From: Patescibacteria group bacterium
GTDB lineage: Bacteria > Patescibacteriota > Patescibacteriia > UBA9934 > GWF2-40-263
Reading direction: 5' to 3'
NCBI GenBank assembly: GCA_018814025.1
Contig: JAHJAM010000025.1
Location: 2,530 to 66,529 of the forward strand
DNA: 64,000 nt
A program made the translations under genes and the position numbers. Below are positions 5,138 to 63,746 of this stretch, piece by piece (the stretch's first letter is position 1; every line of letters begins with the position of its first letter). The notes under the pieces were generated by a model that saw only the letters and a program-made list of their open reading frames with translations, was not told where the DNA came from and did no database searches.

Positions 5138-5157
5138 TCTTTTTCTCGCTCACTTTA

Positions 5158-5186
5158 AGACCGGATACCTTCCGGTCTTTTTTTCT
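5158..5186 (+). terminator. rho-independent terminator
   Basis: AGACCGGA-TACCT-TCCGGTCT hairpin followed by TTTTTTT. Confidence 0.8.
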
Positions 5187-5205
5187 GGTAGAATATAGAT
5201 ACTTT

Positions 5206-19885: not shown

Positions 19886-20485
19886 ATGGCGGAAGCGACT
19901 CGGCAGCAAATTCAAAAAGCGATCGACACCCTCAAAGCCGGGGGTGTCGTGGTCTTTCCCACGGAAACTTCGTACGGCTTGGGCGCGGACGCGACCAATC
20001 GGCAAGCGGTCAGGCGGGTGATGGCGATTAAGGGACGAAGCGAGAGCAAACCGCCGCCGGTCATGGTGGCGGATCTGAAGATGGCTTGGGAACACGGGAT
20101 TTTTTGTCAGCGTCTGCGAGCCTTGGCCAAGCAGTTTTGGCCCGGACCGCTGAATATCATCGTACCCAAGAAAAAGAACAGTCTCATTTTGATCGGCCAA
20201 GGTGAAGTGGCGCTGCGGGTTTCTGGCAGTGCGGTGGCCCGCGAATTGGTCAGAAAATTGGGCCGGCCGATAGTGGCCACTTCCGCGAATTTGGCCGGAG
20301 CCCCGGCCTGCTATTCAATGGCGGCTTGGCGCAAACAAACGGCCGGGCGGGCCTTACAGCCGGATTATATTTTGGACGTCGGCGCTCTGCCGCGCAATCC
20401 GGCTTCGACCATCATTAAGAAACAAAACGGAAAAATTATCGTGGTGCGGCAAGGCGCGATCCAGTTGCCGGAAAAATATGTTTAA
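19886..20485 (+). CDS. tsaC: L-threonylcarbamoyladenylate synthase (YrdC/TsaC family)
   Basis: 'GGVVVFPTETSYGLGADATN' is the YrdC signature. About 200 aa single-domain form. Confidence 0.85.
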   Translation: MAEATRQQIQKAIDTLKAGGVVVFPTETSYGLGADATNRQAVRRVMAIKGRSESKPPPVMVADLKMAWEHGIFCQRLRALAKQFWPGPLNIIVPKKKNSLILIGQGEVALRVSGSAVARELVRKLGRPIVATSANLAGAPACYSMAAWRKQTAGRALQPDYILDVGALPRNPASTIIKKQNGKIIVVRQGAIQLPEKYV

Positions 20486-21251
20486 AGCGAAAAAATCTTA
20501 CAGCCAAAATTGGCTGGTTGATCACTCGGTGGTGAAACAAATGATTCAGGCCGCGGACCTTCAAGCCGGGGAGCGGGTTTTAGAGATCGGTCCGGGCAAA
20601 GGCATGTTGACTCAAGCTTTGGTTGAGGCCGGAGCGAAAGTTTTAGCCGTGGAAGCGGATCGGGATTTGATTGCGCCCTTGCAGAAGCGGTTTGGCGATC
20701 AGATTAAATTGGTCAGGAAAGATATTTTATCGGTTGATTTATCCGGGCTGGGTCTGAAAGACGGAAAATATAAATTAATTGCCAATTTGCCTTACAGCAT
20801 TACCTCCGCGATTTTAGAAAAGTTTTTAGCCCAGGCGCCCAAACCTAGTCGCCTGGTGGTGATGGTACAAAAAGAGGTGGCGGATCGGATTGTGGCTGAA
20901 CCGCCGAAGATGGGGGTCTTGTCCGTGGCTTGCCAAATTTATGCCCAAGGAAAAAAGATCGTGAAAGTGCCGGCCAAATCTTTTCGGCCGGTTCCCAAAG
21001 TCGATTCAACCGTGGTGCGTTTGGATTTGGTGAAGACGAAAAAGGGGGTGGATCCGGAAGCCGTGATCGCTTTGGCCAAAGTCGGCTTTGCGGCGCGCCG
21101 CAAACAGCTGCAGCGCAACTTAGCGGCGGCGCAGCTGGGGGATTCGGAGGCCATCAAACAGGTCTTGCAAAATATCGGTTTAGACAAACAGGCGCGAGCG
21201 GAAAATTTGACTGTGGATAATTGGATCGAACTTCATCAAAAACTTAAATGA
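20478..21251 (+). CDS. rsmA: 16S rRNA (adenine1518/1519-N6)-dimethyltransferase
   Basis: 'SQNWLVDHSVVKQMI...ERVLEIGPGKGMLTQAL...NLPYSITSAIL' is the KsgA signature. Confidence 0.9.
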   Translation: MFKAKKSYSQNWLVDHSVVKQMIQAADLQAGERVLEIGPGKGMLTQALVEAGAKVLAVEADRDLIAPLQKRFGDQIKLVRKDILSVDLSGLGLKDGKYKLIANLPYSITSAILEKFLAQAPKPSRLVVMVQKEVADRIVAEPPKMGVLSVACQIYAQGKKIVKVPAKSFRPVPKVDSTVVRLDLVKTKKGVDPEAVIALAKVGFAARRKQLQRNLAAAQLGDSEAIKQVLQNIGLDKQARAENLTVDNWIELHQKLK

Positions 21252-21266
21252 TTAGCCGGCAAATAT

Positions 21267-21287
21267 TACCACAACCCGGTTGTGGTA
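21267..21287. repeat. REP-like palindromic repeat family A, copy 1 (TACCACAAC-ccg-GTTGTGGTA)
   Basis: 21-nt element with 9-bp inverted arms. Identical copy at 21321-21341. Reverse-orientation copy at 32501-32523. Half-copy at 32910-32924. Confidence 0.85.
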
Positions 21288-21320
21288 AATGGTTTGCATC
21301 AATAATAATAGTCTTTTTTA

Positions 21321-21341
21321 TACCACAACCCGGTTGTGGTA
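21321..21341. repeat. REP-like palindromic repeat family A, copy 2
   Basis: ATACCACAACCCGGTTGTGGTAT, 54 nt after copy 1 in the same orientation. Confidence 0.85.
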
Positions 21342-21456
21342 TAGGTTTGGTTGCTCGCTCGACCCTTCGATGAATTCAAGTAGAGTAAGCTCGGGGCTGT
21401 TTGTATTTATGCACAGTATTTTTATACGCGTTTTTCTGTTATAATATCAGCAACCT

Positions 21457-22152
21457 ATGGAAGAAATTCGGTTGCAAAAGCGCCCCCGTTCAGCTCTTTC
21501 TGTTGAGCAGAAGGTGGCTTTTGTATTATTGCTGATTTTAGGCATGGGCGGATTGATTTTAGGCATGCTTTCTTTCGGCGCGAACATTCGCCGGCCTTTT
21601 GATATTCAGCTGGCCAATTACACGGGCGAGCCGGTTTACGGAACCGACGAAATGGAACGCCGCGAACTGGCGGCTTTGAAGAATAAAGATTCGGATCAAG
21701 ACGGACTTTCGGATTACGATGAATTGTACGTGTTTAAAACCAGCCCGTACTTGTCTGATTCGGATTCGGACGGGATTGACGATCGCACGGAAATTTTTGC
21801 AGGCGAGGATCCCAACTGTCCGAGCGGCAAAGAATGCGGAGCGTTTTTCGCGGGCGAGGAAACCAGTCAAGGGGAGACGGCCACCAGCTTGCTGCCGCCG
21901 CTCACCACCACGCCGGCGGCCGGCAGTTTCGGCAACGTGACCCTCGAGTCGCCGCAAGATATTTTGGAGTATTTTCAAAGTTTGAGCACGGATGAAATTC
22001 GCGACATGCTCAAGCAGCAGGGGGTGCCGGCGGAAACTTTGGATGAATTGGATGATGCCAGTTTGCGCGAATTGATTGAATCGTCTTTGACTAAAGCCAT
22101 GGCGGAAAATCAATTCGATCAGTTTTTAACCGAAGAACCGGCGCAGTATTAG
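21457..22152 (+). CDS. membrane-anchored calcium-binding repeat protein (DxDxDG motifs, thrombospondin type-3/dockerin-like)
   Basis: N-terminal TM 'VAFVLLLILGMGGLILGML'. 'DSDQDGLSDYDE', 'DSDSDGIDDRTE' Ca-binding-like motifs. Stop is 15 nt before the giant gene. Confidence 0.65.
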   Translation: MEEIRLQKRPRSALSVEQKVAFVLLLILGMGGLILGMLSFGANIRRPFDIQLANYTGEPVYGTDEMERRELAALKNKDSDQDGLSDYDELYVFKTSPYLSDSDSDGIDDRTEIFAGEDPNCPSGKECGAFFAGEETSQGETATSLLPPLTTTPAAGSFGNVTLESPQDILEYFQSLSTDEIRDMLKQQGVPAETLDELDDASLRELIESSLTKAMAENQFDQFLTEEPAQY

Positions 22153-22166
22153 CGCCAGCCAGATTT

Positions 22167-25100
22167 ATGAAATTGTTCCAAAGCAAAACCAGGAAGCTGT
22201 TCGCCGGGTTTTTTGCGTTTGGCCTCACCTTGTCGATTGTCTCGGCGGGCATTTTCAGTTTGGTTCAGCCGGCCTGGGCGCAAGATGTCCTGAGCACCGG
22301 GCAAGCGGCTTTGGAAGCCACCAGCAGCCAAACGCCGACCGCGGGGACATCCGTCAGCGCGGGAAATCCGGCCGAGGGTCCGGCCAAAGCCTTGGGGACC
22401 GTGAATCAAAACGTGATTAAGCCATCGATTCAAATGGTTTTGGTCTCGGTTTTGTTAAATTCTTTCCAATTCCTGCTCGACCGGTTGGCCTATGAAGCGG
22501 CCGTGGCCATCGCGTCATTAGGCGCCGGGGAAACGCCGTTAATCGTTCAAAAAGAAGGCCAGGATTTGTGGGCGGATATCGGCATGGACGTGGCCGGGGA
22601 GTTTGTGGGCGGCTTGAGCGACATGAGCACGGATTTCGTGGGGTTTAATCTTTGCGCGCCGCCCAATCCTTTAGTGCGTATGAGCATTCAATTGGGCATC
22701 AAGCAAGCTTATCAGCCGCCGGAGCCGAAATGCGATATTTTGAAAGTCGGCCAAAACTGGGAAGGGTTTATTAACTCAGCCATTCAGTTATCAGACAATC
22801 CGGGCGACGCGATCATTGAAGAATTTGCCAAATCCTTGAAGCCGGGCCGGAATGAGCTGAGCGCTTCGGTGGAGATTATGCTGGAGGCCGAACACCGAAT
22901 TGATTTGGCTAAAGCCACCGGGTTTCAGCAAGCTTTAGCCGGCGACGGTTTTAAGTCAGTGACTGATTTCGTGACCGGTCAAGTGACCACGCCTTCCAGC
23001 GTGTTGCAGAAGCAATTTGAAAAAACCACCATCGAGGATCGCGATAAGGCCGCGGCCTTTCACATGCAGACCCTGATCACCAATCCGGATTATCTTTGGG
23101 CCATGCTGTTTAACACCATGAGCATTTTTACCAACACTTTGCTGTCGGAATCGCTCAATCGGATTTATACCGGCATGTTCGAAGCTTCGCCGGAGATCGA
23201 TCCTTTCAACGTTGAATATATTTCTAACAATAACCGCCAATCAGCCATTGACCGTTTTTCCAGCTACTCCTCAACTCAACCAACTTCAATTACCAATTAC
23301 AACATCATCGCCGAGTTCGTGACTTGCCCTTCGGGCGGAGTGGCGATTCCCAACATTAATAACTGCGTGATGGACGCGAATTTCGCGACCGCGGTTTCGC
23401 GCGCGGCTTCAAAGAATCCCATGACCGTTCAAGAGGCGATTGACGAAGGGCTTTTGCATGGCGATTGGCCGCTGGTCAGTCCGGATGATCGGACCAAAAA
23501 TGAAAATTCGCTGTGTTATACCTTCGGCTATTGTTATGGCAATTTAGTGAAATTGCGCAAAGCCCGGATTATCCCGGTGGGGTGGGAATTGGCGGCCAAG
23601 CGCAGCCAGCAGGGCGCGCCCGCGACTTTGCAGGAAGTGGTTGACGGTTTTGACCACTGCAACAGCCAAGGCACGATCGATAGCAGTTCAAATCGTTTTT
23701 GCCATTTGATTGATCCGAACTGGGTTTTGAAATATCCGGAAACTCAATGCCGGGCTTTTGTCAGCGGCGAACAGATTATCAGCGGCTACAGTTCGGGCCG
23801 GGCCAATACCTGCGTGGATATGCCCAGCTGCATTTCCGAAAATAATGACGGCAGCTGCGATGGCGGCTTCGGCTACTGCGTGCGCGAGAAGAATATTTGG
23901 CGTTTCCGCGGCGATGAATGTCCGGTGCAATACGCCAGCTGTTTGAAGTTTACCAACGCGGATACCAAATCGCAAAAGAGTTTATTGGTGAACACGGTTG
24001 ATTTTGGCGTGTGCGGCCAAGGCAACGCGGGCTGTTTGTGGTATCGCACGAATAAATATATCGATGACAAGGGCAATACGGACCCTTCGGACGATACTTA
24101 CGAATTTTTGCCGGCCGGGGTCAGCTACATGACGGTCGCGCGCGACGCCGCGGTTGAATACGCGGGCTCAACCCGAACCTTTGGCTATTACGCGCACGAG
24201 GATCGGATTTATTTTGACCGGGACGCGGAAGAATGTGCGTCTCAAGACGCTGGTTGTACCAAGCTATATAAAATTGCTGATAATTTAGTTTTGAATGCGG
24301 TTGCAAATGGAAGTTTTGAACAAGATGAGAATAATGACGGGGTGCCGGATGGCTGGATTGGCTTGGAAGCCACGGATCGCGAGAGTGATACTGATGAAGT
24401 TCAGACCGGCGAATATGCCTTGCATATTCATAATGAACCAAACGTGTTTAGCCAGTCCGGCATTCAATTGGCACCGAATACTTTTTATACTTTCAGCCTT
24501 TATGCCAAGCAGGGGAGTGCGGGGGCAACAGCGGCGAATGCTAAGATCAGGATTTATGACGCGTTTGGCGGCTTGATTGATCTGACCGGCTTGTCCACGA
24601 CTTGTACGGTGCAAAGCAATTACTTCCGTTTAGAGTTGCTAAACTTGAACAATGATTATTCTCGTTATGAATGTTCTTTTACTACGCCGGGCACGACCGC
24701 GGCCGCGTCATTAGAAATTGATCCGTTTAACCGAGCCCGTTTCGACGCTATTCAAATCGAGAAAGGCGCGGTGGCGTCCAATTTTGCGGATGGCTATAAT
24801 CGCGAGGGCGCGACCGCTTATCTGAAATTGGCGCCGGACTATTTGGGATGCGAAGGCAAAGCCACGGATCCCCAAGCCTGCGAGCAATATACCCAAGTTT
24901 GTACCGAACAAGAGGTGGGTTGTAATTTGTACACGCCCAAGGGCGGCGGACCGGCGATTCCGGCCATCATCAGCGCGGTGGATGCGTGTCCGGCCGAATG
25001 CGTGGGCTACGCGGCTTTTAAGCAAGAAGCCACCAAATATGAGCTGGCCTTTTTCCCGGAATATTTTATCGCGGACACGGCCGCCAGCTGTACGGCCGAG

Positions 25101-28100
25101 CAAGTGGGCTGCGACAGCTTCACGAATTTGGATGCTTTGGACCAAGGCGGAGAGGGAATTGAATATTATTCCGATTTGCGGGCTTGTTTGACGCCGGCGG
25201 ACGCGGGCGACAATACGGGCGCGGACCGGGCCGCTAATTATTTCACTTGGGAAGGCACGGATCAGGCCGGCTATCAGCTGCGTTCCTGGTGGCTTTTGCA
25301 ATCAAACCTGAGCGATGCGCCATGTTCGAATTGGACCATGAGCGGCGCCTCCTCCTTAATATGTAACGACAGCGGGTCAGGGCTGGCGGCTTGCGACAGC
25401 CATGACGATTTGGTGAACAATCCGGATTGCCGCGAGTTTTTCGATGAAAACGGAGTCCGCCATTATCGCGAATATTCCAAGACCGTTACCATTAGCGAGG
25501 ATTGCCACCCATACCGCAAGACCATTGCCTTGCGCGACGACTGTTTGGCTTCCGACGGCTATTACACCCCGGCCGGCGAGTGCCGGTACTTTGGCGTGCC
25601 TGTGGAAAGCCAGAGCTGTTCGGCTTCGGCGGTCGGCTGTCGATCATATACGGGCGGGGCCGCGCGCAATCAAAGCGTGGTTTTCGATGATAATCTTGAG
25701 AGCGGCACCGTGGCCAATTACATGACGGAAAACGGCATCAACATTGCTTTTAGCAATGAGTCGCTGGCGCCGGACGGACATTCTTTGCGCGTTTATAATG
25801 CCAGCGGCACGGAATTTATCGCCACTACTCAGGCGATTATGACCAGCGAATGCGCGACCGCGGGCGGCTGTGCCAATCAAAATAGCGAGATGAACGGCGA
25901 GTGCGTGATTGCACAAGGAGAAATTGATTGCGGTCCGCTGCGCGACAAAATCGCGGCCGGCAAGACATTTAATTTGGAATTTTTAGCCAAAGGCAATGGC
26001 GCCATCAAGGCCGCTTTAATCGAACACGGCGGCGCGGATGACCTGCATTATTTCGGCGAAGCGCAACTGACCGGCGCTTGGCGGCTTTACACGCTTGGTC
26101 CATTGGATACCAGCGATTTGGATTACATTGATCGGACCACGGTTTTAGGTTTTCAAACCAGCGGAGCCACGGAATTTTTCTTGGATAATATCCGCCTGAC
26201 GCAAGCTGAAGATAACATTACTTTGATTAAAGATTCTTGGGTGACGCCCGCGGCTTGCGATCAAACGCCCAACGGCCTGAGTTCGCCGCAGTATTACCTG
26301 GGCTGCCAGGAATATTCGGATGTCACCAACCGTCCCAATTATCTTTATCAGTTCAGCCGCTTGTGCGGGGAAGATAAGGTCGGCTGCGAGGCTTATTATC
26401 AAACTTACAATTCGCAATCGCCTTACGGCCAAGTCAATAATGCGCGCTGTTTGAATGGCGCGGCGCCGAATGGCTCGCCGGTCGGCGCTTTGACCGCCTG
26501 CCAGTTTAACGGCCGGACCGTGTGTTCGATTGCGCCCGGAACCAATTTCTGTTTGTTCAATTTAGATCAAGCCATTAGCCGGCCTTTGCCCGCCAAGATC
26601 GTTTTGGGTCCGGAAGCCAAACTGGTTTCCGGGGATCGGCCGGTCTATTTGATTGATGACGGTTCAACTTCGTGTTCGGCGGCCAATGTTGGCTGTACGG
26701 AAATCGGCCAGCCCACGTTTAATCGCGACAAAACTCAAGTCACGGGTTTTGAATCCGCCTATTTCATGAATAATCCGGATGAGTATGAAAATACTCTTTG
26801 CGCCCACAAGGCTTTATTCTGTGCTGAGTGGTCATCGACCAAAGACGGCAATTTCTACTTCAAAGATCCGCTGGATCAAACTTGTGAATACAAGACCGGC
26901 ATCACCATCGATCGGCGCGAGTTTTTTGGCTGGTTCCGTAAAGGCAGCAATGAGCCGTGCGATTGGAATGATTTGAACCAGGACGGCGCCTACCATCCGG
27001 CGGATGATTCAGCTTTAATCAAGGAAGGCGGCAAATTTGAAGTTTGGCGCAATGGCGACAGCCAGTATTCGGGCTGGGTCGCGCAATGCGATCAGAATAT
27101 GGATTTGTGCACGGAATTTTTAGACCCGACCGATTCGCAAGAAGGGCGAAACCCGCTGGGCACGTCCTATTATTTCAAAAACAACGACGCTTTAAGCGAA
27201 AGCTCTCTGGCCGCGACTCAGCGCTGCGACGGCTTAGTCAGCCAGAAGCAGGGTTGCGTGCTGTTCCACAATTCCAGCATTTCCGACATGTATTATTCGG
27301 CCGAGCCCAGCTACATTGCTTCCGAACGCGCGGATATCTTGTTCGGGGACGCACAATTTGCCAAGGTTGATCCGATTGATTGCACCAATTACGATCCGAA
27401 CGAAAATCGGCTGGGGAAAAACCTATGCGAGCTGCGCTGCGCTTACCGCACGGGCGGCTTGGCTAATCCGCTCAAGACCTTGGCGACCACGGCTTCAACC
27501 GCTGATGCGAACCTGCTGTATTCAGGCGCTTGCGTGGATAATTCCGATTGCCCAAGCCAAGTGGCGGCCAACGGCTTGACTTACGCGGGCAACTGCGTGA
27601 GCGTGGAGCCGGCGGCACGCTTTACCAATAACACTAATGCCATTGTGAAAGTGGTGCGCGATCGCGCTTGCGCCCAGTGGCTGACGTGCGAATCAAAGAG
27701 CGTGACTTTTGATGACCAGCAGCAGAAGTGGGTGGAGGTGTGCGAGAATTTGGAGCTGTGCTCGCGCTATACCCGGGAAGGGGACACCACCGAGTGCACG
27801 GCCGCGGATCAGCCTGAACCGTATGTGCTGGATGCGCTGTACTATGCGGCCCGCGACGTAACTTGGACCGGGGTGGAATATTCCGGCTACTCGATTCCGG
27901 ATCAGCTGCCCGTGGATCTTTATGACCAGGTGGATTTGAATCCCAGCAAGTGGTGCGTCAGTACCGCTTCGGGGCGGCCTTACCGCGATGAGCAAACTGA
28001 TTTAGGCGTGCCTTGCACCAGTGATGACGGTTGCGATTATCTGGCCGCGGCCGGCGACTATTATTGCAGTCCGGCCAACGAACAGTATTATGTTTTGGCC

Positions 28101-31100
28101 AATGTGGCCGGGCCGTGCACGGAAGATTACAACACGGCTTGTACCGTGGGCTTTTGTGAGGATCATCCGAATATTGCCTGCGGCAATTCCAGCCATTGTC
28201 CCGATAATGGCGAGATCTGCGTGGTGGGCTATTGCCAGGACGTATATTTGGCGATTGGCTGTGATACGAACACGCAGTGCAACGGCGTTTCCGGCGGCCG
28301 AAACATCTGCGATCCGGTGGCGCGCAAGTGCGTGAATCAATTGACAACCGGCGAAAACGCCACGGCTTGCCGCAGTGCCGGCGACTGTACGGGCATCAAT
28401 CCGACCTGCACGCCCAGCGCCTTATCTCGAGTCGGCACCTGTTTTAATCAGCAGTGCTTGCTGGATATCAAAGGCCAGCCTTACAGTGCGAAACAGGACA
28501 AGGTGATTAACCCGGAGTGCCGCGGCTATCCGGAAATCGATTCGCCGTTTTCCGGTATCCCGGGCACGGTGGTGACCAAATATACGACCAAACCACCACC
28601 GACCGATTTCCTGCCGCAAGCTCAGGAGAAAAAAGTCGGCTACGGCCAAGTGAATATTTGCGCGCCGATTCAAACCGCGGCCGGGGTTTGGGCTTATACT
28701 TCTGATTGTTTGTGCAGTTATGAAAAGATGACTTACGGCGACGGGATCAAAACCTTTTATTATCCCAAAGGCACGGATCTGGATAATTTAGAAGGCGTGT
28801 GCGTGGGCGGACAATTCGACAGCTATACTTGCGCCAAGGATTCCGAATGCGGGTGCGCACGCGACAGCAGCTGCGAGGGGAATGAAATTAGCCTGGGCAT
28901 CTGCGCGCTGCCTAAGAAAAAAGAAACTTATCAAGGCTGGACCGGCCATTGCATTGAACGGGATTCGTCCACGCATATTTATGTGGAACAAGAAAAGAAC
29001 GCGTGTTTAACTTGGCTGCCCGTGGATCGGCTGACCGGGGCCACTGATTTGTACGGAAAAGATTTGGAAGCCGGACAATTCATCAATCAAGACGTTTTCT
29101 ATTGTTCCGAAACCGGCTATTACATGGATTTGTATCCGACCGGCACGGTTTTTGATGATTACAGTAATATTGTGGGCATTGATTATGCTTGCGCGTCGTC
29201 AATAGACGCTCCGGGAAATTTTCAGTGTGAGCAGGGCGAACGGGATAGTTGTGAAAAAAATGCTTACTGTCCGGCAGGCTGGGTGGCGCTGGTGGGTGTT
29301 TGCCATGGAAGTAGCAAGACGGAGACCAGTTTAGGGTATTGTACGGCGGATGTGTTGAATGAAAATTCAGACCTCCGAACCAAAATGCCGATTCAGGCCG
29401 CTGATCTGGCCTTGCCGCCGCTGGCACCGAATCTTAATGATTGTCCATATTTTTGCGTGCCAAAAAACAGTTATCATTCCGAGGGCAATGATGTCGGAAC
29501 GGCCTGCTTCGGTTCCGGACAGCTTTCAACAACTAATGTGGACGGCACTTCGGTTTTTGCCACCCCTTATTATCTGAACGATAACTTAGGAGTCGCGAAC
29601 GGCGAATCGTTTGCCAGCAGTACGGGCGCCTTCAAGAAATATTCCGACTGCGTGGTGCGCGGCGTGCCGGTGGGAACGAGCGAATACGAAACAGACTGGT
29701 ATTATAATTCCAGTTTTGAAGACGAAAATAGCGGATGGTATAAGGGGTATGGCTGGAAGCGCAATACTGATCTCAGTCCGGGCGAAATTGCGGTAGATTT
29801 CGGTCTCGGGCACGCCGCTTATGGTATTTTGCATCGGGCCGTGGGCGCCGGATATAAACATTGCGAAAGTTTAGGACAGGCTTGCACGACCGATGCTCAA
29901 TGTTTGGGTAATTATTCGACGGCGTTTGGTCCGGGCGGCATTCCGTCCAGTTTGACTGGCGCAACACTTCTGGCGTTTGAGGCGTTTTTGAATCAAGTTG
30001 CCCCATTTGTCGGCCAGTGCGGAACTTACGGCGGACCCGAGACGACCAGCGGATCGATTCGGCCTTATTACGGCTGTTATGAACTGACCCAAGTTTCTCA
30101 AGAAGTGACTACGGGTGCGGCCTTGGCGGAAAGCAACAAAGCCTGGACCAATCGTTTGTGGCAGAGCGCGGATCCGCTTTATCAAACCAAGACCAATATG
30201 CCCCAATGGACCGGTTCGGCTACCCAACCTTTGGAATATACGGTGCTGGATGCTCCCGCACCGGCCGGACAGGCTTTGTTTGCGGATTATTTCCAGCGCG
30301 ACGGGCTGACCAATAGATATCTCATGCGGGATTTTGCCGATGCTTTCCCCTTGCCGGTGCGGACTGATTTGGGCGGTTTTGCCATCGGTACAGTGGGTTT
30401 GGATATCAAAGCCGGCATTACGGACGCGGAAGCTTACAAATATCCGAGTTTGAATCAGTATAAAACCGGAGCCAGCAGTACGGCTTTGAAATCCGGGCAC
30501 ACGCCATACAGCTTAGCGCTCTCTTATGAAGACTTGGGAAATGGTTCTGAACTATCCGCGGTTTCAGGGGACATCGCTTTAGACCAGTATGGCCGTTTTG
30601 GAAACAGCAATAGTACGGAGGTAGGCGTCAGTCCGGATCCGGACGGGCAACAAAGCGTGCGCCGTTTGTTATCACAATTTTTTGCAAAAACATATGCGGT
30701 TTATCAATATGTTTGGAATGACAACCGCGGCACGTATGTGAAACAGCCGGACGCGGCCGGGGAGCAGTACGAATCAATGGATATTTCCAGCCAGGGCGAT
30801 GCTTTGGGCACAGAGTTTAATCAATATTCCGGCAATGGCGGACAGGTGCCGGTAGTGAAGTCAGTGGGTTCATGCCAAAACGGCTTATGCGCCGAAGGTA
30901 CGTCCGGCACGATGTCGGTCAACGGCATCGACGATGAAGATATTGTGATGAATGGCTATCAAACTTTCCAAGCCACGTTAAGCTTCTTTACCTATGCCCA
31001 GCCCAACCAATTGCCGATCCGCCAGATTATTGTGGATTGGGGAAATGGCACCGAGGAGGGGTCGATGGACACTTGGACGAATTGGCCTTTAACCAGCCAC

Positions 31101-31643
31101 AGCGGTTCTTCGGCCGCGGATAATTATTATAAAAATCATCGCGGCACTGACGGTTATGGCGGGGAAGTTTGGTGCGATGAAGGACGCATGGGGTTTGGCG
31201 GCAGCGGCGAAGCGTGCGAAAGCTCTTACCTGACTTTTGTGAATTCTTACCGATGTACCCCAACCATACTGACGGAATTGGATACAGCCGGGCGCGTGTG
31301 CCGGTTCCTAACTTTGCCAAACGGCGAGCGGAGATTGGAATATTCGCCGTGTATTGATCAGGGCTTGCAGGCTTGCGGCTTCCAGCCGCGCGTGTATGTG
31401 AAGGATAACTGGGGCTGGTGCACGGGGTATTGTACGAGTAATCCGGATGAGACACCGCTGGATGGTATTGATAATCCACCTGATTCAACTAATCAATGTT
31501 ATGGAAGTGAGTGTGATTTTGTGAGCTGTCCGAGTACGGGGCTGGGTGGTACTCCAACGTCAGATGTGTGCCCTGATGGTGAGTTTAGCGGTATAGATGA
31601 TCCATGGATATATTTTGACGGAGTGATTAAAATTCAGCCGTAG
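22167..31643 (+). CDS. giant secreted cysteine-rich surface protein (3158 aa) with two CBM4/9-like jelly-roll domains
   Basis: Uninterrupted 9.5-kb ORF. Signal peptide 'FAFGLTLSIVSAGIFSLVQPAWAQD'. More than 150 Cys. 'NAVANGSFEQDENNDGVPDGW...FDAIQIEKG' (nt ~24300-24780). 'FDDNLESGT...FFLDNIRLTQAE' (nt ~25690-26210). Confidence 0.9.
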   Translation: MKLFQSKTRKLFAGFFAFGLTLSIVSAGIFSLVQPAWAQDVLSTGQAALEATSSQTPTAGTSVSAGNPAEGPAKALGTVNQNVIKPSIQMVLVSVLLNSFQFLLDRLAYEAAVAIASLGAGETPLIVQKEGQDLWADIGMDVAGEFVGGLSDMSTDFVGFNLCAPPNPLVRMSIQLGIKQAYQPPEPKCDILKVGQNWEGFINSAIQLSDNPGDAIIEEFAKSLKPGRNELSASVEIMLEAEHRIDLAKATGFQQALAGDGFKSVTDFVTGQVTTPSSVLQKQFEKTTIEDRDKAAAFHMQTLITNPDYLWAMLFNTMSIFTNTLLSESLNRIYTGMFEASPEIDPFNVEYISNNNRQSAIDRFSSYSSTQPTSITNYNIIAEFVTCPSGGVAIPNINNCVMDANFATAVSRAASKNPMTVQEAIDEGLLHGDWPLVSPDDRTKNENSLCYTFGYCYGNLVKLRKARIIPVGWELAAKRSQQGAPATLQEVVDGFDHCNSQGTIDSSSNRFCHLIDPNWVLKYPETQCRAFVSGEQIISGYSSGRANTCVDMPSCISENNDGSCDGGFGYCVREKNIWRFRGDECPVQYASCLKFTNADTKSQKSLLVNTVDFGVCGQGNAGCLWYRTNKYIDDKGNTDPSDDTYEFLPAGVSYMTVARDAAVEYAGSTRTFGYYAHEDRIYFDRDAEECASQDAGCTKLYKIADNLVLNAVANGSFEQDENNDGVPDGWIGLEATDRESDTDEVQTGEYALHIHNEPNVFSQSGIQLAPNTFYTFSLYAKQGSAGATAANAKIRIYDAFGGLIDLTGLSTTCTVQSNYFRLELLNLNNDYSRYECSFTTPGTTAAASLEIDPFNRARFDAIQIEKGAVASNFADGYNREGATAYLKLAPDYLGCEGKATDPQACEQYTQVCTEQEVGCNLYTPKGGGPAIPAIISAVDACPAECVGYAAFKQEATKYELAFFPEYFIADTAASCTAEQVGCDSFTNLDALDQGGEGIEYYSDLRACLTPADAGDNTGADRAANYFTWEGTDQAGYQLRSWWLLQSNLSDAPCSNWTMSGASSLICNDSGSGLAACDSHDDLVNNPDCREFFDENGVRHYREYSKTVTISEDCHPYRKTIALRDDCLASDGYYTPAGECRYFGVPVESQSCSASAVGCRSYTGGAARNQSVVFDDNLESGTVANYMTENGINIAFSNESLAPDGHSLRVYNASGTEFIATTQAIMTSECATAGGCANQNSEMNGECVIAQGEIDCGPLRDKIAAGKTFNLEFLAKGNGAIKAALIEHGGADDLHYFGEAQLTGAWRLYTLGPLDTSDLDYIDRTTVLGFQTSGATEFFLDNIRLTQAEDNITLIKDSWVTPAACDQTPNGLSSPQYYLGCQEYSDVTNRPNYLYQFSRLCGEDKVGCEAYYQTYNSQSPYGQVNNARCLNGAAPNGSPVGALTACQFNGRTVCSIAPGTNFCLFNLDQAISRPLPAKIVLGPEAKLVSGDRPVYLIDDGSTSCSAANVGCTEIGQPTFNRDKTQVTGFESAYFMNNPDEYENTLCAHKALFCAEWSSTKDGNFYFKDPLDQTCEYKTGITIDRREFFGWFRKGSNEPCDWNDLNQDGAYHPADDSALIKEGGKFEVWRNGDSQYSGWVAQCDQNMDLCTEFLDPTDSQEGRNPLGTSYYFKNNDALSESSLAATQRCDGLVSQKQGCVLFHNSSISDMYYSAEPSYIASERADILFGDAQFAKVDPIDCTNYDPNENRLGKNLCELRCAYRTGGLANPLKTLATTASTADANLLYSGACVDNSDCPSQVAANGLTYAGNCVSVEPAARFTNNTNAIVKVVRDRACAQWLTCESKSVTFDDQQQKWVEVCENLELCSRYTREGDTTECTAADQPEPYVLDALYYAARDVTWTGVEYSGYSIPDQLPVDLYDQVDLNPSKWCVSTASGRPYRDEQTDLGVPCTSDDGCDYLAAAGDYYCSPANEQYYVLANVAGPCTEDYNTACTVGFCEDHPNIACGNSSHCPDNGEICVVGYCQDVYLAIGCDTNTQCNGVSGGRNICDPVARKCVNQLTTGENATACRSAGDCTGINPTCTPSALSRVGTCFNQQCLLDIKGQPYSAKQDKVINPECRGYPEIDSPFSGIPGTVVTKYTTKPPPTDFLPQAQEKKVGYGQVNICAPIQTAAGVWAYTSDCLCSYEKMTYGDGIKTFYYPKGTDLDNLEGVCVGGQFDSYTCAKDSECGCARDSSCEGNEISLGICALPKKKETYQGWTGHCIERDSSTHIYVEQEKNACLTWLPVDRLTGATDLYGKDLEAGQFINQDVFYCSETGYYMDLYPTGTVFDDYSNIVGIDYACASSIDAPGNFQCEQGERDSCEKNAYCPAGWVALVGVCHGSSKTETSLGYCTADVLNENSDLRTKMPIQAADLALPPLAPNLNDCPYFCVPKNSYHSEGNDVGTACFGSGQLSTTNVDGTSVFATPYYLNDNLGVANGESFASSTGAFKKYSDCVVRGVPVGTSEYETDWYYNSSFEDENSGWYKGYGWKRNTDLSPGEIAVDFGLGHAAYGILHRAVGAGYKHCESLGQACTTDAQCLGNYSTAFGPGGIPSSLTGATLLAFEAFLNQVAPFVGQCGTYGGPETTSGSIRPYYGCYELTQVSQEVTTGAALAESNKAWTNRLWQSADPLYQTKTNMPQWTGSATQPLEYTVLDAPAPAGQALFADYFQRDGLTNRYLMRDFADAFPLPVRTDLGGFAIGTVGLDIKAGITDAEAYKYPSLNQYKTGASSTALKSGHTPYSLALSYEDLGNGSELSAVSGDIALDQYGRFGNSNSTEVGVSPDPDGQQSVRRLLSQFFAKTYAVYQYVWNDNRGTYVKQPDAAGEQYESMDISSQGDALGTEFNQYSGNGGQVPVVKSVGSCQNGLCAEGTSGTMSVNGIDDEDIVMNGYQTFQATLSFFTYAQPNQLPIRQIIVDWGNGTEEGSMDTWTNWPLTSHSGSSAADNYYKNHRGTDGYGGEVWCDEGRMGFGGSGEACESSYLTFVNSYRCTPTILTELDTAGRVCRFLTLPNGERRLEYSPCIDQGLQACGFQPRVYVKDNWGWCTGYCTSNPDETPLDGIDNPPDSTNQCYGSECDFVSCPSTGLGGTPTSDVCPDGEFSGIDDPWIYFDGVIKIQP

Positions 31644-31663
31644 TGGGAAAATTTGGAGATTAA

Positions 31664-31690
31664 AAAAGACCAGTGCTAGGCACTGGTCTT
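31664..31690. terminator. bidirectional terminator between the giant gene (+) and the lipoprotein gene (-)
   Basis: AAAAGACCAGTGC-TAG-GCACTGGTCTT, a perfect 11-bp stem. Confidence 0.8.
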
Positions 31691-31711
31691 AAGTTTGGCG
31701 GCCTCTGCCAG

Positions 31712-32286
31712 CTATTTGCGAGAGTACACGCAGTTGAGTTCGTTGCCTCCAACAAGGATGGCGTGGTGCTGGAAACTCTCGCCGTCATTGGCAATGGTGC
31801 CGTCGATGCAGTAGCCGACGCTATTGCATCCTTCGTAGTGGTTGCCCACGATTTCGGCGTTGATGTTGGCGAAGCCGCGCATTTCGATCTTGCCGTTGTT
31901 GACCAAGGTGAGAAGCTCGCGTTCTTCCTGGCAGTTTGCATCGCTGGTGATATAGAACTCTTTGAGCGGGATGCCGGCTGTAATGGTCAGGAGGACCAAC
32001 TCGCCATTGTCATCCACATCGGCAGTAGCCGGTACGCTCAGAAATGATGAGCCTTGGCTTTCGATCTCGTAGACGCCGGCCGCGTGGACCTTGTGCTCGC
32101 AGGTCATGGCATTGGTGCAGACCACCTCGCCGTCGACCAGGAAGTCGCCGGGCGGAACGCCTTGGGTGATGCTCATGGAGAGCGTGGCTGTGAAAGAACC
32201 GGGGTTGCCGCCGTCGGGATCGAATTCGGCAGGGCCGCACGCCAGAATGGGCGCGGCGAGGAGAAGCATCATTATCTTCTTCATCG
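31712..32286 (-). CDS. hypothetical lipoprotein
   Basis: Start MKKIMMLLLAAPILAC (lipobox-like LAC) after GAGGTGA RBS. The track's ORF extends further upstream without an RBS. Confidence 0.7.
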
Positions 32287-32500
32287 TATCACCTCGTTTT
32301 TGCCCCGCAGTGCGGGTTGGGTTAAAGAGCTTATCTCTACTTAAATTAGACAGCAAACTTTTGGTTTTGTCAAGGTGGCTCCGGACAAACGGTGAATAAT
32401 GAAGCAGGTATTATTTAGCTAATATTAGCCAAGACTCTTGACATATTGTGTTTTTTGTGATATATTTATCAGTCTTCAAAGTTGAGTAATCATCATCCCA

Positions 32501-32523
32501 ATACCACAACCGGGTTGTGGTAT
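32501..32523. repeat. REP-like palindromic repeat family A, inverted-orientation copy (ATACCACAACCGGGTTGTGGTAT)
   Basis: Same arms as the 21267/21321 copies, but the asymmetric centre is CGG instead of CCG, i.e. opposite orientation. Confidence 0.85.
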
Positions 32524-32543: not shown

Positions 32544-32819
32544 ATGTTTAACAAGAAGCGAGCGGAAAAAATGGTGGGCGCGGCGGCTTGTACGCTGCAG
32601 TTGGTCCTGATCTTTGGCGGGTACTCGGATCAGATTCGGCAGATGCTTAAGGCCGAGTCGTTGGCCGGCGTGTCCATTACGCTGTTCGTGCTAGTGCTCA
32701 TCTCACACTTGTTCTGGACAGTGTATGCGCTGATCAAGCGCGACAAGGCCGTGCTGATTCCGCAGATCCCGGGATTCCTATTGGCCGCTTCGATTGTGGT
32801 CATAATTATTTCTAAATAG
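32544..32819 (+). CDS. small hypothetical membrane protein (3 TM, 91 aa)
   Basis: ATG 32544 after CAGGAGG RBS. Hydrophobic. Confidence 0.55.
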   Translation: MFNKKRAEKMVGAAACTLQLVLIFGGYSDQIRQMLKAESLAGVSITLFVLVLISHLFWTVYALIKRDKAVLIPQIPGFLLAASIVVIIISK

Positions 32820-32909
32820 TATTCAGTCCGTGTTTATACCTCCGACTTAGGTCGGAGGTTTTTTATCCAAGCAACCCCGGGTGGAGGCTTGGTATGGCAG
32901 GTACTCGCA

Positions 32910-32924
32910 ATACCACAACCCGGT
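32910..32924. repeat. partial family-A REP copy (ATACCACAACCCGGT) abutting a family-B repeat
   Basis: Left arm plus centre only. Confidence 0.6.
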
Positions 32925-32929: not shown

Positions 32930-32950
32930 TTTCCATCATCCGGCTATGGA
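32930..32950. repeat. REP-like repeat family B (TTCCATCATCCGGCTATGGAA), left flank of the RAYT gene
   Basis: Imperfect palindrome. Reverse-complement copies at 33672-33692 and 33582-33602. Related copy CCATCATCCGGTGATGG at 51012-51028. Confidence 0.8.
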
Positions 32951-32953
32951 AAA

Positions 32954-33565
32954 TTATTTCATAAATTCTTGATAAGATTTTTGATCCATAAATTCTTCGT
33001 CTAGCCATTTAGGATCGACAATGTTATTTGCACCTGAAGAATTTAGAAAGTCAGCGTAGCTGGACCAAGGGTAGTCACGCAGAAATTGGTTTATTTGATC
33101 CCAATTTGTGTGTGGTTTGTTAATGAGTTTCAGTGGATTGCAGTGAATATATTTAGTTAAGTAGATAAGTTGTCTCTCGTTTGTAACTTGTTTGATCTTG
33201 TAGGGCCCCTCAAATAACCTACCCGTTCTCTTGTGTTTTAGGTTGAAATATTTTGTGTATCCGTTACCTAATCGTTGAAAAAAATGTGATATTCCATTGT
33301 CAGAATTTTGTTGGAGTAAGATGTGAAAGTGGTTTGGCATTAAACAGTAACACCGGATGTTGACCAGTTTTGTCCGACATGTGTTTTTATTGTAGCCGTT
33401 ATTTCTAGTTAATGTACATGTTGCTTTGCGATTGATTTGATTAAAGACTGCCATTCCTTTCAAGAATCTTTGATAGTCATTTTTATCGTCAAAGATAATT
33501 CGTTTATCAACTCCGCGATTATAGATGTGACAATATTGTCCATTGTAAAATTCCATTCTTTTCAT
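32954..33565 (-). mobile_element. REP-associated tyrosine transposase (RAYT; IS200-like HuH/Y1 transposase)
   Basis: HuH motif 'CLMPNHFHILLQ'. Catalytic Tyr region 'LIYLTKYIHCNPLK'. About 200 aa. Likely start MKRMEFYNGQ at 33565, but the ORF is open to 33664. Flanked by inverted family-B palindromes. Confidence 0.8.
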
Positions 33566-33671
33566 AAAGAATTCCAAAGCCGGATGATGGAAAATAAAAC
33601 TTCCACCAACTGGTGTTTGGTGGAAGTACACTGATAATATCGCACATTTTTTCATGATTGTCAACTACAAA

Positions 33672-33692
33672 TTCCATAGCCGGATGATGGAA
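33672..33692. repeat. REP-like repeat family B, right flank of RAYT (TTCCATAGCCGGATGATGGAA)
   Basis: Inverted relative to 32930-32950. Near-duplicate 90 nt upstream at 33582-33602 (AATTCCAAAGCCGGATGATGGAAA). Confidence 0.8.
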
Positions 33693-33701
33693 AGTTTGGT
33701 A

Positions 33702-34082
33702 CGATATTTTTGAGGAGTGGCGACTGGTAGCGAGCGAGTGGTGGCTTTATGCCGTCGACTGTTCAAACGGATTCGACTGCATGGAAGGCCATGAGTCGAC
33801 TTTGGCACCAGACCGGTTGGAATGAAGGCGAATTCCATTCCGGGCCGGTGTGCCCGCCCATCCGGGCTAAGCGGTTTCCAAGAAGCCTTTTGGAAAACGC
33901 ATCCGTGGCTACCACGGTTTTTTCGGCCGCCGGGTGGCGTAGCTCAAGCGGAGCTCGACACCCAATCCTCACTGCCGGTGAGTTCTGACTTGTTCGCAAG
34001 TCCGAGCTCGCCGGCTTTTTTGTTGTGTGCTAATATTTTTTTGAGGCCAGACTGTCAGCCCTGAAACGCTACCACTCCTCAA
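33702..34082 (+). ncRNA. candidate structured noncoding element (~380 nt, GC-rich) bounded by inverted repeats; identity unresolved
   Basis: No credible ORF on either strand. Terminal inverted repeats TTGAGGAGTGG..TGGTAGCG (33702-33724) and CGCTACCACTCCTCAA (34066-34082). Internal hairpins (TTCCAAGAAGCCTTTTGGAA; CGTGGCTACCACG). GCCGGC+T6 at ~34008-34020. Confidence 0.3.
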
Positions 34083-34091
34083 CGGTCGCCG

Positions 34092-34124
34092 CTCCTCGTC
34101 TCGATTTCGATCAAACGAGGAGGA
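34092..34124 (+). promoter_or_regulatory. RBS-sequestering hairpin upstream of the small lipoprotein gene
   Basis: CTCCTCGT (34093-34100) pairs with ACGAGGAG (34115-34122), overlapping the SD GAGGAGGA 7 nt before ATG 34129. Confidence 0.5.
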
Positions 34125-34128
34125 TCCA

Positions 34129-34335
34129 ATGAAAACCCAGACACACCAAGTACTACCCGTTTTTTCCGCACTCGCGGTTTGCTTCATCTGCGGGTTTGGT
34201 GGTTGCAGTGCGCCGGAGAAACCGATCCGCGCGCTTTTCCCTGCTTTGAATCGGTCAGCGGGATTGGAAGGCGACGAGCATGACCGAACAGTAGGGTCGG
34301 CTTGGGTCGATTTGGATTCAGGTCTGGTGGTTTAA
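34129..34335 (+). CDS. small putative lipoprotein (68 aa)
   Basis: Strong SD. Signal peptide with Cys-containing lipobox-like 'FGGCSAPE'. Followed by a terminator. Confidence 0.55.
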   Translation: MKTQTHQVLPVFSALAVCFICGFGGCSAPEKPIRALFPALNRSAGLEGDEHDRTVGSAWVDLDSGLVV

Positions 34336-34342
34336 GCCTCAC

Positions 34343-34385
34343 GGCCGGTCGGAGTTCTGCTCCGACCGGCTCTTTTCTTTTGCGT
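34343..34385 (+). terminator. rho-independent terminator
   Basis: CCGGTCGGAG-TTCTG-CTCCGACCGG followed by CTCTTTTCTTTTG. Confidence 0.8.
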
Positions 34386-34430
34386 TTGAATCAGGCAAGA
34401 TATTAGGTATTCAATCTTAATCAAGTCAAT

Positions 34431-38132: not shown

Positions 38133-38198
38133 AACCCCAGATTTTCGCTAAAATCTGGGGTTTTTTTCTTAGAAAAAGCCAGAGCCCGGCTCTGGCTT
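38133..38198 (+). terminator. two tandem rho-independent terminators
   Basis: AACCCCAGATTTTCGCTAAAATCTGGGGTTTTTTT, then AAAGCCAGAGCC-CGG-CTCTGGCTT. Confidence 0.85.
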
Positions 38199-47857: not shown

Positions 47858-47951
47858 GGAGAGGTACCCAAGAGGCTGAAGGGGCGGGTTTGCTAAACCT
47901 GTAGGTCGGGGTTTTCTCGGCGCGGGGGTTCGAATCCCCCCCTCTCCGCCA
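47858..47951 (+). tRNA. tRNA-Ser (anticodon GCT)
   Basis: Acceptor GGAGAGG/CCTCTCC. Anticodon loop TTGCTAA. Long variable arm. T-arm GGGGG-TTCGAAT-CCCCC. Encoded CCA. Confidence 0.85.
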
Positions 47952-48045
47952 TCGAGCTTAGCTCGATTGTTCCGCGGTTAGCCAAAGCTCAGCTTTGGCC
48001 GCACTCGAGATAAGCTCGATGATGAGTCGAGCTCAGCTCGACCAC
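47952..48045 (+). repeat. tRNA-Ser-associated ~95-nt repeat, copy 1 (three AGCT-centred hairpins)
   Basis: TCGAGCTtAGCTCGA, CCAAAGCTcAGCTTTGG, GTCGAGCTcAGCTCGAC modules. ~90% identical copy at 48172-48265. Confidence 0.8.
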
Positions 48046-48081
48046 AAACCGTGAGGGTAAACAGTTTGAACTTTGTCGCAA

Positions 48082-48171
<90 letters not shown>

Positions 48172-48265
48172 TCGAGCTTAGCTCGATTGTTCTACGGTTA
48201 GCCAAAGCTGAGCTTTGGCTGTACTCGAGATAAGTTCGATAATTAGTCGAGCTTAGCTCGACCAA
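48172..48265 (+). repeat. tRNA-Ser-associated ~95-nt repeat, copy 2
   Basis: tcgagcttagctcgattgttctacggttagccaaagctgagctttggctgtactcgagataagttcgataattagtcgagcttagctcgacc. Confidence 0.8.
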
Positions 48266-51007: not shown

Positions 51008-51011
51008 CTTT

Positions 51012-51028
51012 CCATCATCCGGTGATGG
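51012..51028. repeat. palindromic repeat family B copy (CCATCATCCGGTGATGG) between convergent recG and radA
   Basis: Near-perfect palindrome related to the RAYT-flanking repeats. Probably also serves as a bidirectional terminator. Confidence 0.7.
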
Positions 51029-51035
51029 ACAAGTG

Positions 51036-63580: not shown

Positions 63581-63588
63581 TAAGAGAC

Positions 63589-63733: not shown

Positions 63734-63746
63734 CTTGAAAAGTATT

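Follow-up and report, generated by a model that had tools for sequence, protein, structure and literature searches.

REP-like palindromes in the long spacers around a conserved giant-protein locus of a Patescibacteria genome

Palindrome copies and genes at the locus

The window, a 64-kb stretch of DNA from a genome of the Patescibacteria lineage, contains a 9.5-kb gene encoding a giant secreted protein. Together with the gene preceding it and a convergent lipoprotein gene, it lies between copies of a short palindrome, here named family A. The relevant features are as follows.

21266-21288, unstranded: family A copy 1 (TTACCACAACCCGGTTGTGGTAA), 15 nt 3' of the rsmA stop codon
21319-21343, unstranded: family A copy 2 (TATACCACAACCCGGTTGTGGTATA), 54 nt from copy 1, terminator-like on the plus strand
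21400-21456, plus: promoter block of the TSP3-like/giant operon (TTTATGCACAGTA...GTTTTTCTGTTATAAT), with TATAAT at 21440-21445
21457-22152, plus: membrane-anchored 231-aa protein with Asp-rich TSP3-like repeats; its ortholog in the relative L021 has a faint PF18884 match
22167-31643, plus: giant secreted protein, 3158 aa, with a weak CBM_4_9 match
31666-31690, unstranded: terminator hairpin in the spacer where the giant and lipoprotein genes converge, scored as terminator-like on the minus strand
31712-32287, minus: lipoprotein gene (MKKIMMLLLAAPILAC...), lipobox LAC, with an ortholog in relatives
32438-32466, plus: sigma-70-like promoter TTGACA-17-TATATT for the SemiSWEET gene, 11/12 matches, with TG extension
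32501-32523, unstranded: family A copy 3, central G on the plus strand, in the predicted 5' UTR of the SemiSWEET gene, about 10 nt before the AGGAGG ribosome-binding site
32544-32819, plus: gene for a SemiSWEET-type transporter (PF03083), with an intrinsic terminator behind it at 32838-32859
32909-32924, plus: family A copy truncated at the central CCGG (AATACCACAACCCGG), with a copy of a second palindrome, family B, 6 nt away

Family A reads ATACCACAACC(C/G)GGTTGTGGTAT. An exact 21-mer, TACCACAACCCGGTTGTGGTA, is found on the plus strand at 21267-21287 and 21321-21341 and on the minus strand at 32502-32522, where 0.01 matches would be expected; none of 100 dinucleotide shuffles contained as many. 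Its 9-nt arm, ACCACAACC, occurs seven times against 0.23 expected, the seventh occurrence being the half copy at 32909-32924. The perfect palindrome reaches 23-25 nt at every full copy, and the copies are identical over 21-23 nt. No alignable sequence was found in the flanks of the full copies, so the repeat unit is the palindrome alone. All copies in the window, three full and one truncated, are intergenic.

An earlier note on this DNA had placed the palindromes at 21267, 21321 and 32501, with a half-copy at 32910, around three genes and about 400 bp short of a RAYT-type gene. This description is confirmed throughout; the gene in question, of the Y1_Tnp type, lies 431 bp past the third full copy. 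The inverted orientation which the note also described is correct insofar as the central base of copy 3 is opposite to that of the upstream copies. However, the 21-mer and its reverse complement differ at one position only, the central C/G, and the sites are matched on both strands with 0-1 mismatch. Since the site is otherwise self-complementary, its orientation is defined by a single base.

The two upstream copies can pair as one hairpin with a minimum free energy of -38.4 kcal/mol (z = -4.2) and one central C.C mismatch. Their ability to form one long hairpin makes them a REPIN-like doublet (21266-21343). Judged by the central base, these two copies are direct, not inverted, and palindromy makes the difference nearly nil.

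A canonical REP occurs in tens to hundreds of copies per genome; for a dispersed family, the three and a half copies in the 64 kb read, all of them within 12 kb of one another, are few. When GTDB species representatives, JGI metagenomes and IMG/VR, collections from which the source genome is absent, were scanned for exact matches to family A, only chance-level single matches in unrelated taxa came up. Within the window, hairpins or palindromes are present in most long spacers, repeated palindrome families in several of them. The similarity of family A to family B, to hairpin X (see below) and to a palindrome at 38176 is weak, with scores of 7-9 (95th percentile of the null 7, 99th percentile 10).

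Conservation of the locus in relatives

The gene order YidC, GroES/EL, RF1, Sua5, RsmA, TSP3-like, giant, lipoprotein, SerS is kept in four relatives (L019, L020, L021 and L026), whose giant proteins show 35-56% identity to the one in the window. The palindrome is absent from all four. With 202 homologues at E<=1e-10, the giant protein represents a conserved Uhrbacteria family. The variable DNA is the interval between the lipoprotein gene and serS, beyond the bracket.

These observations bear on the proposal of the earlier note, an 11-kb giant-protein cassette that could move, be excised or invert, with family A copies as its inverted ends, as a possible route for surface-protein variation or exchange. 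The copies indeed flank the locus on both sides with opposite central bases, a Y1 transposase gene lies close by, and REP sequences are possible recombination join points in other bacteria. Nevertheless, we consider it extremely improbable that such a cassette exists. In four palindrome-free relatives, gene order within and around the bracket is conserved, and the segment does not vary in presence, position or orientation; a syntenic locus in relatives was the second part of what the note itself had named as refuting its reading. The variable content sits outside the bracket, and the supposed inversion hangs on one base. In independent assemblies of the same strain, three contigs (99.95-99.98% identical) run colinear with the window over both palindrome-bearing junctions, the middle of the giant gene being uncovered. 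Because the operon promoter is located inside the bracket, inversion would not switch expression, and no recombinase gene was found within the bracketed segment. Likewise unsupported is the view that the distant copies form an inverted REP pair acting as RAYT substrate: Y1/RAYT enzymes work on hairpins tens of bases apart, which is the spacing of the pairs in REPINs, and here the distance is 11 kb. What resembles a REPIN is the upstream doublet itself, and the repeats belonging to the Y1 gene are those of family B.

Between the two spacers that carry family A there is just one short spacer, 68 bp, taken up by the terminator hairpin. Two consecutive long spacers being occupied, the giant-protein locus is bracketed automatically. 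The bracketing is probably incidental.

The spacer between rsmA and the TSP3-like gene measures 205 bp in the window, 94 bp in L026, 20 bp in L019, 12 bp in L020 and 193 bp in L021, where it holds another, different long inverted repeat. In L026, the closest relative with this spacer, it consists of a terminator and the promoter block, which is conserved also in L018, whose contig begins just downstream of where the palindrome would be. As the L026 spacer contains the terminator and promoter only, the two upstream family A copies represent a lineage-specific insertion. The doublet thereby occupies the place which a canonical terminator has in the closest relative.

This position lends some support to the idea that the host has selected the copies as RNA elements (terminators, insulators or mRNA stabilisers), which arose by local duplication and have no link to a transposase. 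The copies form stable hairpins, and copy 2 passes as terminator-like in the scan. However, copies 1 and 3 lack a T tract, and copy 3 is situated in a 5' UTR instead of at a 3' end. For identical copies to stand 11 kb from each other, some copying mechanism is needed, and the truncated copy abuts the Y1 module, a member of a family regularly flanked by such palindromes. We therefore find this explanation unlikely as it stands; an RNA-level role is largely a consequence of the copying model favoured below more than an alternative to it.

Still less likely, in our opinion, is that family A serves as operator for a dimeric DNA-binding protein regulating the giant-protein operon together with the lipoprotein and SemiSWEET genes, which form a divergent pair, the copies being binding sites and not mobile DNA. 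A perfect 10-1-10 palindrome has operator size, every full copy lies in a promoter-containing spacer, and the 54 bp between the upstream copies correspond to about five helical turns. The perfect identity of all copies would also be compatible with a protein-binding site under selection. On the other hand, the site is not conserved at orthologous promoters: it is absent in L026, where the promoter block itself is conserved (the L018 contig starts too far downstream to include it). Identity over 21-23 nt is the pattern of copying, not of independently evolved sites. The upstream copies are 100-170 bp upstream of the -10 element, the truncated copy lies behind a terminator beside the Y1 module, where a promoter is not expected, and no regulator gene is adjacent.

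The Y1 transposase-like gene and its own palindromes

The gene next to the truncated family A copy is embedded in a module with the following features.

32931-32951, minus: family B palindrome (TTCCATAGCCGGATGATGGAA), 3 nt after the Y1 stop codon, inverted with respect to the two upstream copies, at the left edge of the low-GC module
32954-33565, minus: Y1 HUH transposase-like (RAYT-like) gene, 203 aa, with HFH at 79-81 and Tyr139; GC 0.34 against 0.515 in the rest of the window
33572-33592, plus: family B copy with one mismatch, directly upstream of the Y1 start codon
33599-33627, minus: hairpin X (ACTTCCACCAAC...GTTGGTGGAAGT on the plus strand) in the Y1 leader, terminator-like on the minus strand; its arm is weakly like those of A and B
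33636-33664, minus: promoter-like site TTGACA-17-GATATT for the Y1 gene
33672-33692, plus: exact family B copy at the right edge of the low-GC module
33694-33702, plus: GTTTGGTAC, possibly the degenerate right half of a family A copy that the Y1 module has split (GTT-TGGTA against GTTGTGGTA); suggestive only
51010-51030, minus: dispersed family B-like palindrome (TTCCATCATCCGGTGATGGAC) between two convergent genes

The Y1 protein scores 35.4 bits with Pfam Y1_Tnp (PF01797; cutoff 23), and in an alignment with seven homologues H79, H81, Y139 and N143 are invariant, so that the Y1 HUH core is present. With the NCBIfam model REP_Tyr_transpos (NF047646) it reaches 41.2 bits, below the cutoff of 80, and no sequence relative was found in the PDB at E<=1. 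The gene is present in a single copy in the window. Its flanking repeats are inverted across the gene, two family B copies upstream and one downstream, in a REPtron-like arrangement. Family B is a palindrome different from family A; one further, degenerate B-like copy is found in the 64 kb, 17 kb from the module.

The low-GC module comprises 760 bp, has sharp GC boundaries at about 32940 and 33720 with family B at its edges, and abuts the truncated family A copy. Probably it landed in or beside a copy of family A. The putative right half at 33694-33702 is imperfect, and an equally good score is obtained in 2.1% of 30-nt windows (p about 0.02, post hoc).

Four Y1 homologues from three lineages of Patescibacteria each have their own flanking short palindromes, some of them perfect with a 3-nt centre. 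In one case (L012) all palindrome copies are on one strand. For three of the homologues, no extra copies of the flanking repeats were found in up to 10 kb on each side. Two homologues (P0016 and P0024) both lie in an EF-Ts/GAPDH context, pointing to vertical inheritance. The low GC of the Y1 gene (0.34 against 0.51) in two hosts of higher GC is a hint of transfer. Short palindromes of a related kind are also found in-frame within coding genes of relatives, namely in rsmA of L020 and in the variable loop of several Y1 genes.

Comparison with known systems and proposed origin

REP, REPIN and RAYT (TnpA-REP) systems have been described from Proteobacteria (Nunvar 2010; Bertels & Rainey 2011, PMC3116915; Ton-Hoang 2012; Quentin et al. 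2018, PMC6006769). Family A resembles them in being a short extragenic palindrome with identical copies, and its doublet, like a REPIN, is foldable as one long hairpin. Like RAYT loci, the Y1 gene has palindromes of its own inverted across it, more than one palindrome family around it, and a fixed genomic context across related genomes. There are also differences. The canonical REP is an imperfect hairpin whose foot carries an unpaired 5' GT[AG]G tetranucleotide (PMC6006769), whereas family A has no such foot, GTGG/CCAC lying inside the stem, and its palindromes are perfect, not bulged. The Y1 protein departs from RAYTs in its subthreshold NCBIfam score and in having no PDB sequence relative. 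The host, too, is not a proteobacterium, and our literature search found no report of a RAYT or REPIN for the Patescibacteria lineage.

A single Y1 gene in a compact module of some 760 bp that has hairpins at both ends is also reminiscent of IS200/IS605 elements (TnpA Y1, subterminal hairpins), as are the terminator-like hairpin in the leader, the foreign low GC with sharp boundaries and the possible insertion into or beside a palindrome. Unlike the ends of IS200/IS605, which read on one strand, the end hairpins here are inverted across the gene, and there is one copy in 64 kb. The conserved contexts of Y1 homologues in related genomes are likewise not those of an active insertion sequence. 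Rickettsia palindromic elements are in-frame palindromic insertions in protein-coding genes. The in-frame palindromes of the relatives, which are not family A, are similar to these elements, whereas family A in the window is confined to sites between genes.

Taken together, we regard it as probable that family A is a REP/REPIN-like, lineage-specific repeat copied into long spacers, with no mobile cassette and no significance in the bracketing. The REP-like part of the earlier reading thus persists, as a short, non-random intergenic palindromic repeat near a Y1/RAYT-like gene whose homologues are similarly flanked; the framing of a giant-protein cassette does not. Family A would be a REP-like extragenic palindrome of about 23 nt (10-bp arms and one central base), specific to the lineage of this Uhrbacteria-like Patescibacteria genome. 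As a small selfish repeat it would recently have spread into a few long spacers, the nearest free ones, as a doublet behind rsmA, a singlet in the SemiSWEET 5' UTR and a truncated copy beside the Y1 module. Copying may be due to a Y1 HUH transposase which recognises and cleaves the hairpin in single-stranded DNA, either the neighbouring Y1 acting in trans or another one elsewhere in the genome; the cognate palindrome of the neighbouring gene would be family B. Once settled, the hairpins may act on the RNA, by protecting 3' ends or by partially terminating transcription.

A wider possibility, which we put forward tentatively and think doubtful, is that Patescibacteria including Uhrbacteria carry an undescribed system of the REP/RAYT type. 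It would comprise a distinct low-GC Y1 clade, perfect short palindromes that have no GT[AG]G foot, several palindrome families side by side in each genome, and copies lying in-frame in housekeeping and transposase genes. Family A would then be an actively copied member reshaping spacers, by replacing terminators and entering 5' UTRs, beside a conserved giant surface-protein operon.

For the biology of these bacteria, we advise against listing this locus among mobile or phase-variable surface-protein cassettes. REP/RAYT-like repeats, characterised so far mainly in Proteobacteria, appear to be present in the tiny, tightly packed genomes of Patescibacteria, where they make up much of the scarce long intergenic DNA and, in relatives, even occur in-frame inside genes. 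In these lineages they plausibly break up metagenome assemblies and blur regulatory predictions based on spacers.

Palindrome copies around the giant-protein locus

Exact matches to the 21-mer TACCACAACCCGGTTGTGGTA are found at 21267 and 21321 on the plus strand, and its reverse complement at 32502, against 0.01 matches expected from dinucleotide-preserving shuffles of the window. The presence of this palindrome (family A) on both sides of the giant-protein locus, as described in the earlier note, is thus borne out. All full copies are perfect palindromes, 23-25 nt long. Its 9-nt arm is found seven times (0.23 expected), the odd, seventh occurrence belonging to a truncated copy, AATACCACAACCCGG, at 32909-32924. 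Comparison of flanks revealed no shared sequence outside the palindrome, which therefore does not belong to a longer repeated element. The inverted orientation holds in part: the reverse complement does lie at 32502, but TACCACAACCCGGTTGTGGTA differs from its own reverse complement only in the central base (both strands being listed with 0 or 1 mismatch), and "direct" and "inverted" copies are therefore told apart by a single base.

Genes around the family A copies
20478-21251, rsmA
21457-22152, TSP3-like membrane protein, Asp-rich, 231 aa
22167-31643, giant protein, 3158 aa
31712-32287, minus strand, lipoprotein gene
32544-32819, SemiSWEET gene, followed by an intrinsic terminator
32954-33565, minus strand, Y1_Tnp gene
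from 34431, serS

The lipoprotein gene, implied earlier to share the orientation of its neighbours, actually lies on the minus strand. A search with the giant protein gave 202 homologues at E<=1e-10; almost all measure ~3,000-3,400 aa, and many carry an Uhrbacteria label. Judged by the giant protein and RsmA, the source, a Patescibacteria MAG, is placed among Candidatus Uhrbacteria relatives.

The interval 21457-32287 includes a single spacer of 68 bp, which a terminator hairpin occupies. Family A thus sits in whichever long spacers come first on the two sides of the locus, and this accounts for the apparent bracketing. Most long spacers of the window contain hairpins or palindromes, several of them with repeated palindrome families.

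Gene order and spacer content in relatives

The bracketed segment had been proposed to be a mobile or recombinogenic cassette. In three relatives with 39-46% giant-protein identity (contigs L019, L020 and L021), the order is YidC, an unnamed gene, Wzy, GroES, GroEL, MamF-like, RF1, epimerase, Sua5, RsmA, TSP3-like, giant protein and lipoprotein (minus strand). Where contigs are long enough (L019, L020), SerS and M23 peptidase follow, same as in the window. L026, from the closest relative with rsmA (RsmA identity 73%), keeps this order up to the contig end. Neither family A nor family B, the palindrome flanking the Y1 gene, is present in these four contigs. What varies is found beyond the bracket, in the interval separating the lipoprotein gene from serS: SemiSWEET and Y1 genes in the window, seven other genes in L019, and a small ORF with a TrmB-family gene in L020.

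Colinearity with the window, and the same family A copies, were also seen in three further contigs of this strain (99.95-99.98% identity), which cover both palindrome-bearing junctions but leave out the central part of the giant gene. A search for strain variants turned up none: every other contig encoding these proteins (from Logan SRR2540949 and GCA_018822945.1) belongs to this strain and is colinear. Moreover, the operon promoter block (TATAAT at 21440-21445) is inside the bracket, so that inversion would not switch expression. Conserved synteny among relatives, one of the two observations that the earlier note would count jointly against a cassette, together with the absence of the palindrome from these relatives, variation outside the bracket, colinear same-strain contigs and the internal promoter, leaves the cassette and inversion idea not supported.

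The rsmA/TSP3-like spacer measures 205 bp in the window as opposed to 94 bp in L026, where it consists of a canonical terminator (GAGCCGTACGGCCC, then a T run) and a promoter block. This block, TTTATGCACAGTA...GTTTTTCTGnTATAATAT, is common to the window, L026 and L018 (a further relative). The ~110 extra bases of the window are the two family A copies and the DNA between them, located where L026 has its terminator. The same spacer is 20 bp in L019, 12 bp in L020 and 193 bp in L021, the last containing a different long inverted repeat. Judging from this comparison, the upstream family A copies are a recent insertion. Its different contents across lineages indicate that the spacer accepts different small palindromic insertions, and that the giant-protein operon does not have family A as a conserved regulatory component.

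The L021 insertion (L021:7060-7245), with inverted-repeat arms of roughly 40 bp (AACGGGGTTGCGAATAACGAATTAGTTACTTATTACAC...), looks like a MITE. The promoter block is conserved at the nucleotide level in three lineages (window 21400-21459; L026:4056-4113; L018:37-90). TATAAT ends only 11 nt from the TSP3-like ATG and no Shine-Dalgarno sequence is present, suggesting that the giant-protein operon transcript is leaderless or near-leaderless.

The Y1 gene, family B and homologous genes

The Y1 protein is of HUH/Tyr type (Pfam, 35 bits), with H79, H81 and Y139 invariant. Its 41 bits fall below the NCBIfam RAYT equivalog cutoff of 80, and a PDB sequence search gave no match. Family B, TTCCATAGCCGGATGATGGAA, flanks the gene with one copy 3 nt past the stop codon and two inverted copies upstream. 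The upstream pair encloses a promoter-like site and hairpin X (33599-33627), which is terminator-like; a further, B-like copy is located at 51010. G+C content falls from ~0.53 to ~0.3 at 32940 and goes up again at 33720, both steps coinciding exactly with the outer family B copies. On the outer side of the left one of these, 6 nt away, is the truncated family A copy. Directly outside the right one, GTTTGGTAC matches the missing family A half with one deletion, as well as 2.1% of 30-nt windows do. This arrangement suggests, without proving it, that the Y1 module landed in a family A copy. No second Y1 gene that could be cognate to family A was found in the window.

Beyond the module (window 33700-34430), ~420 bp of G+C-rich DNA (about 0.55) lack credible ORFs and matched nothing in Rfam even at E<=1. 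Next come a 68-aa ORF (34129-34335) whose start resembles a lipobox signal and a strong terminator (34343-34371). The only other stretch with GC below 0.40 (612-nt windows) is 5000-5600, comprising a 290-bp spacer and the start of a 529-aa ORF (5206-6795).

Four homologous Y1 genes from three lineages, whose surroundings were fetched, are each flanked by a lineage-specific palindrome.

Palindromes flanking Y1 homologues
L012-L014: TTACCAACGCTAAAGGTTGGTAA, three copies
L015/L016: ATGTGCAGAAT...ATTCTGCACAT; related form in L022/L023
L024: GTCGAAGCTAAGCTTCGAC

Like family A, some of these are perfect around a centre of 3 nt. No extra copies were detected near these genes in the flanks retrieved, which reached up to 10 kb per side. 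The shared EF-Ts/GAPDH context of two homologues, P0016 and P0024, indicates vertical inheritance. Set against the published REP classification (PMC6006769), the repeats have no canonical GT[AG]G foot and resemble the "atypical" structures of some subclasses.

Three Parcubacteria-type Y1 genes also include their own flanking palindrome in-frame (L015:10170-10194, L022:10170-10194, L024:10179-10197), in a variable loop preceding the HUH motif (e.g. NVQNPILHI in P0016), at the same position and with differing sequences; the Y1 gene of the window has no internal copy. Similarly, rsmA of L020 (GCA_943357095.1) contains CCCTCTCCTTTCGAAGGAGAGGG and TCCCCTCCTCATAGGGAGGAGGGGA in-frame (L020:8702-8724 and L020:8999-9023), encoding PSPFEGEG and SPPHREEGT within two insertions (10 and 13 aa) relative to RsmA of the window, reminiscent of Rickettsia palindromic elements. 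Similar copies occur inside two other L020 ORFs (L020:1093-1114 and L020:2541-2563).

Other palindromes and the nature of family A

A single perfect palindrome, AAGCCAGAGCCCGGCTCTGGCTT (38176-38198), right behind the terminator of the M23 peptidase gene, equals family A in length and has the same CCCGG centre. The G+C-rich CCCCCTCCTTCGTAAGGAGGGGG is present in three copies (two direct, 52 nt apart, and one inverted) at 63599-63721 in one spacer (63581-63747); the distant relative L020 has palindromes of this kind too, which makes the family older or more widely spread than family A. After each of the two tRNA-Ser genes (47858-47951 and 48082-48171) comes one and the same series of three short palindromes, ATCGAGCTTAGCTCGAT, GCCAAAGCT(C/G)AGCTTTGGC and GTCGAGCT(C/T)AGCTCGAC (window 47951-48262), apparently a duplicated block. 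The final palindrome is similar to that flanking Y1 in L024.

By eye, the A, B, X, 38176 and L012 palindromes have a common CCA...CCGG...TGG skeleton. The family A arm is weakly similar to B and X (scores 7-9; 95th percentile 7, 99th 10), and the resemblance of the L012 palindrome is not significant. A common origin of all five was set aside, their alignment scores being of borderline significance relative to random palindromes.

Scanning for exact matches to the 19-mer core of family A, in collections without the source genome, returned five single matches among GTDB representatives (an archaeon, Saprospiraceae, Lachnospiraceae, Omnitrophota and Streptomyces), four in JGI metagenomes and none in IMG/VR. 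None of the matched GTDB and JGI sequences is related to the window by BLAST; these are chance-level matches in unrelated taxa. Family B had no match in IMG/VR. The papers searched contained no report linking RAYTs or REPINs with Patescibacteria. Known RNA families were sought in the spacers and dismissed, Rfam giving only spurious miRNA-precursor matches from the long doublet hairpin.

The family A doublet (21266-21343) folds into a single hairpin with one central mismatch (-38.4 kcal/mol, z = -4.2), the geometry of a REPIN. Copy 2 passes a terminator-like scan. Copy 3, a predicted stable hairpin, corresponds to ~+27 to +50 of the predicted SemiSWEET transcript, before the ribosome-binding site. 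A REP-like nature of family A is plausible, a REP/REPIN-like repeat being its most likely identity. We infer its tie to the neighbouring Y1 gene from proximity, the abutting truncated copy and the weak arm similarity to B and X. Family A may have been copied by a Y1 transposase, and its hairpins may act at the RNA level as terminators or stabilisers.
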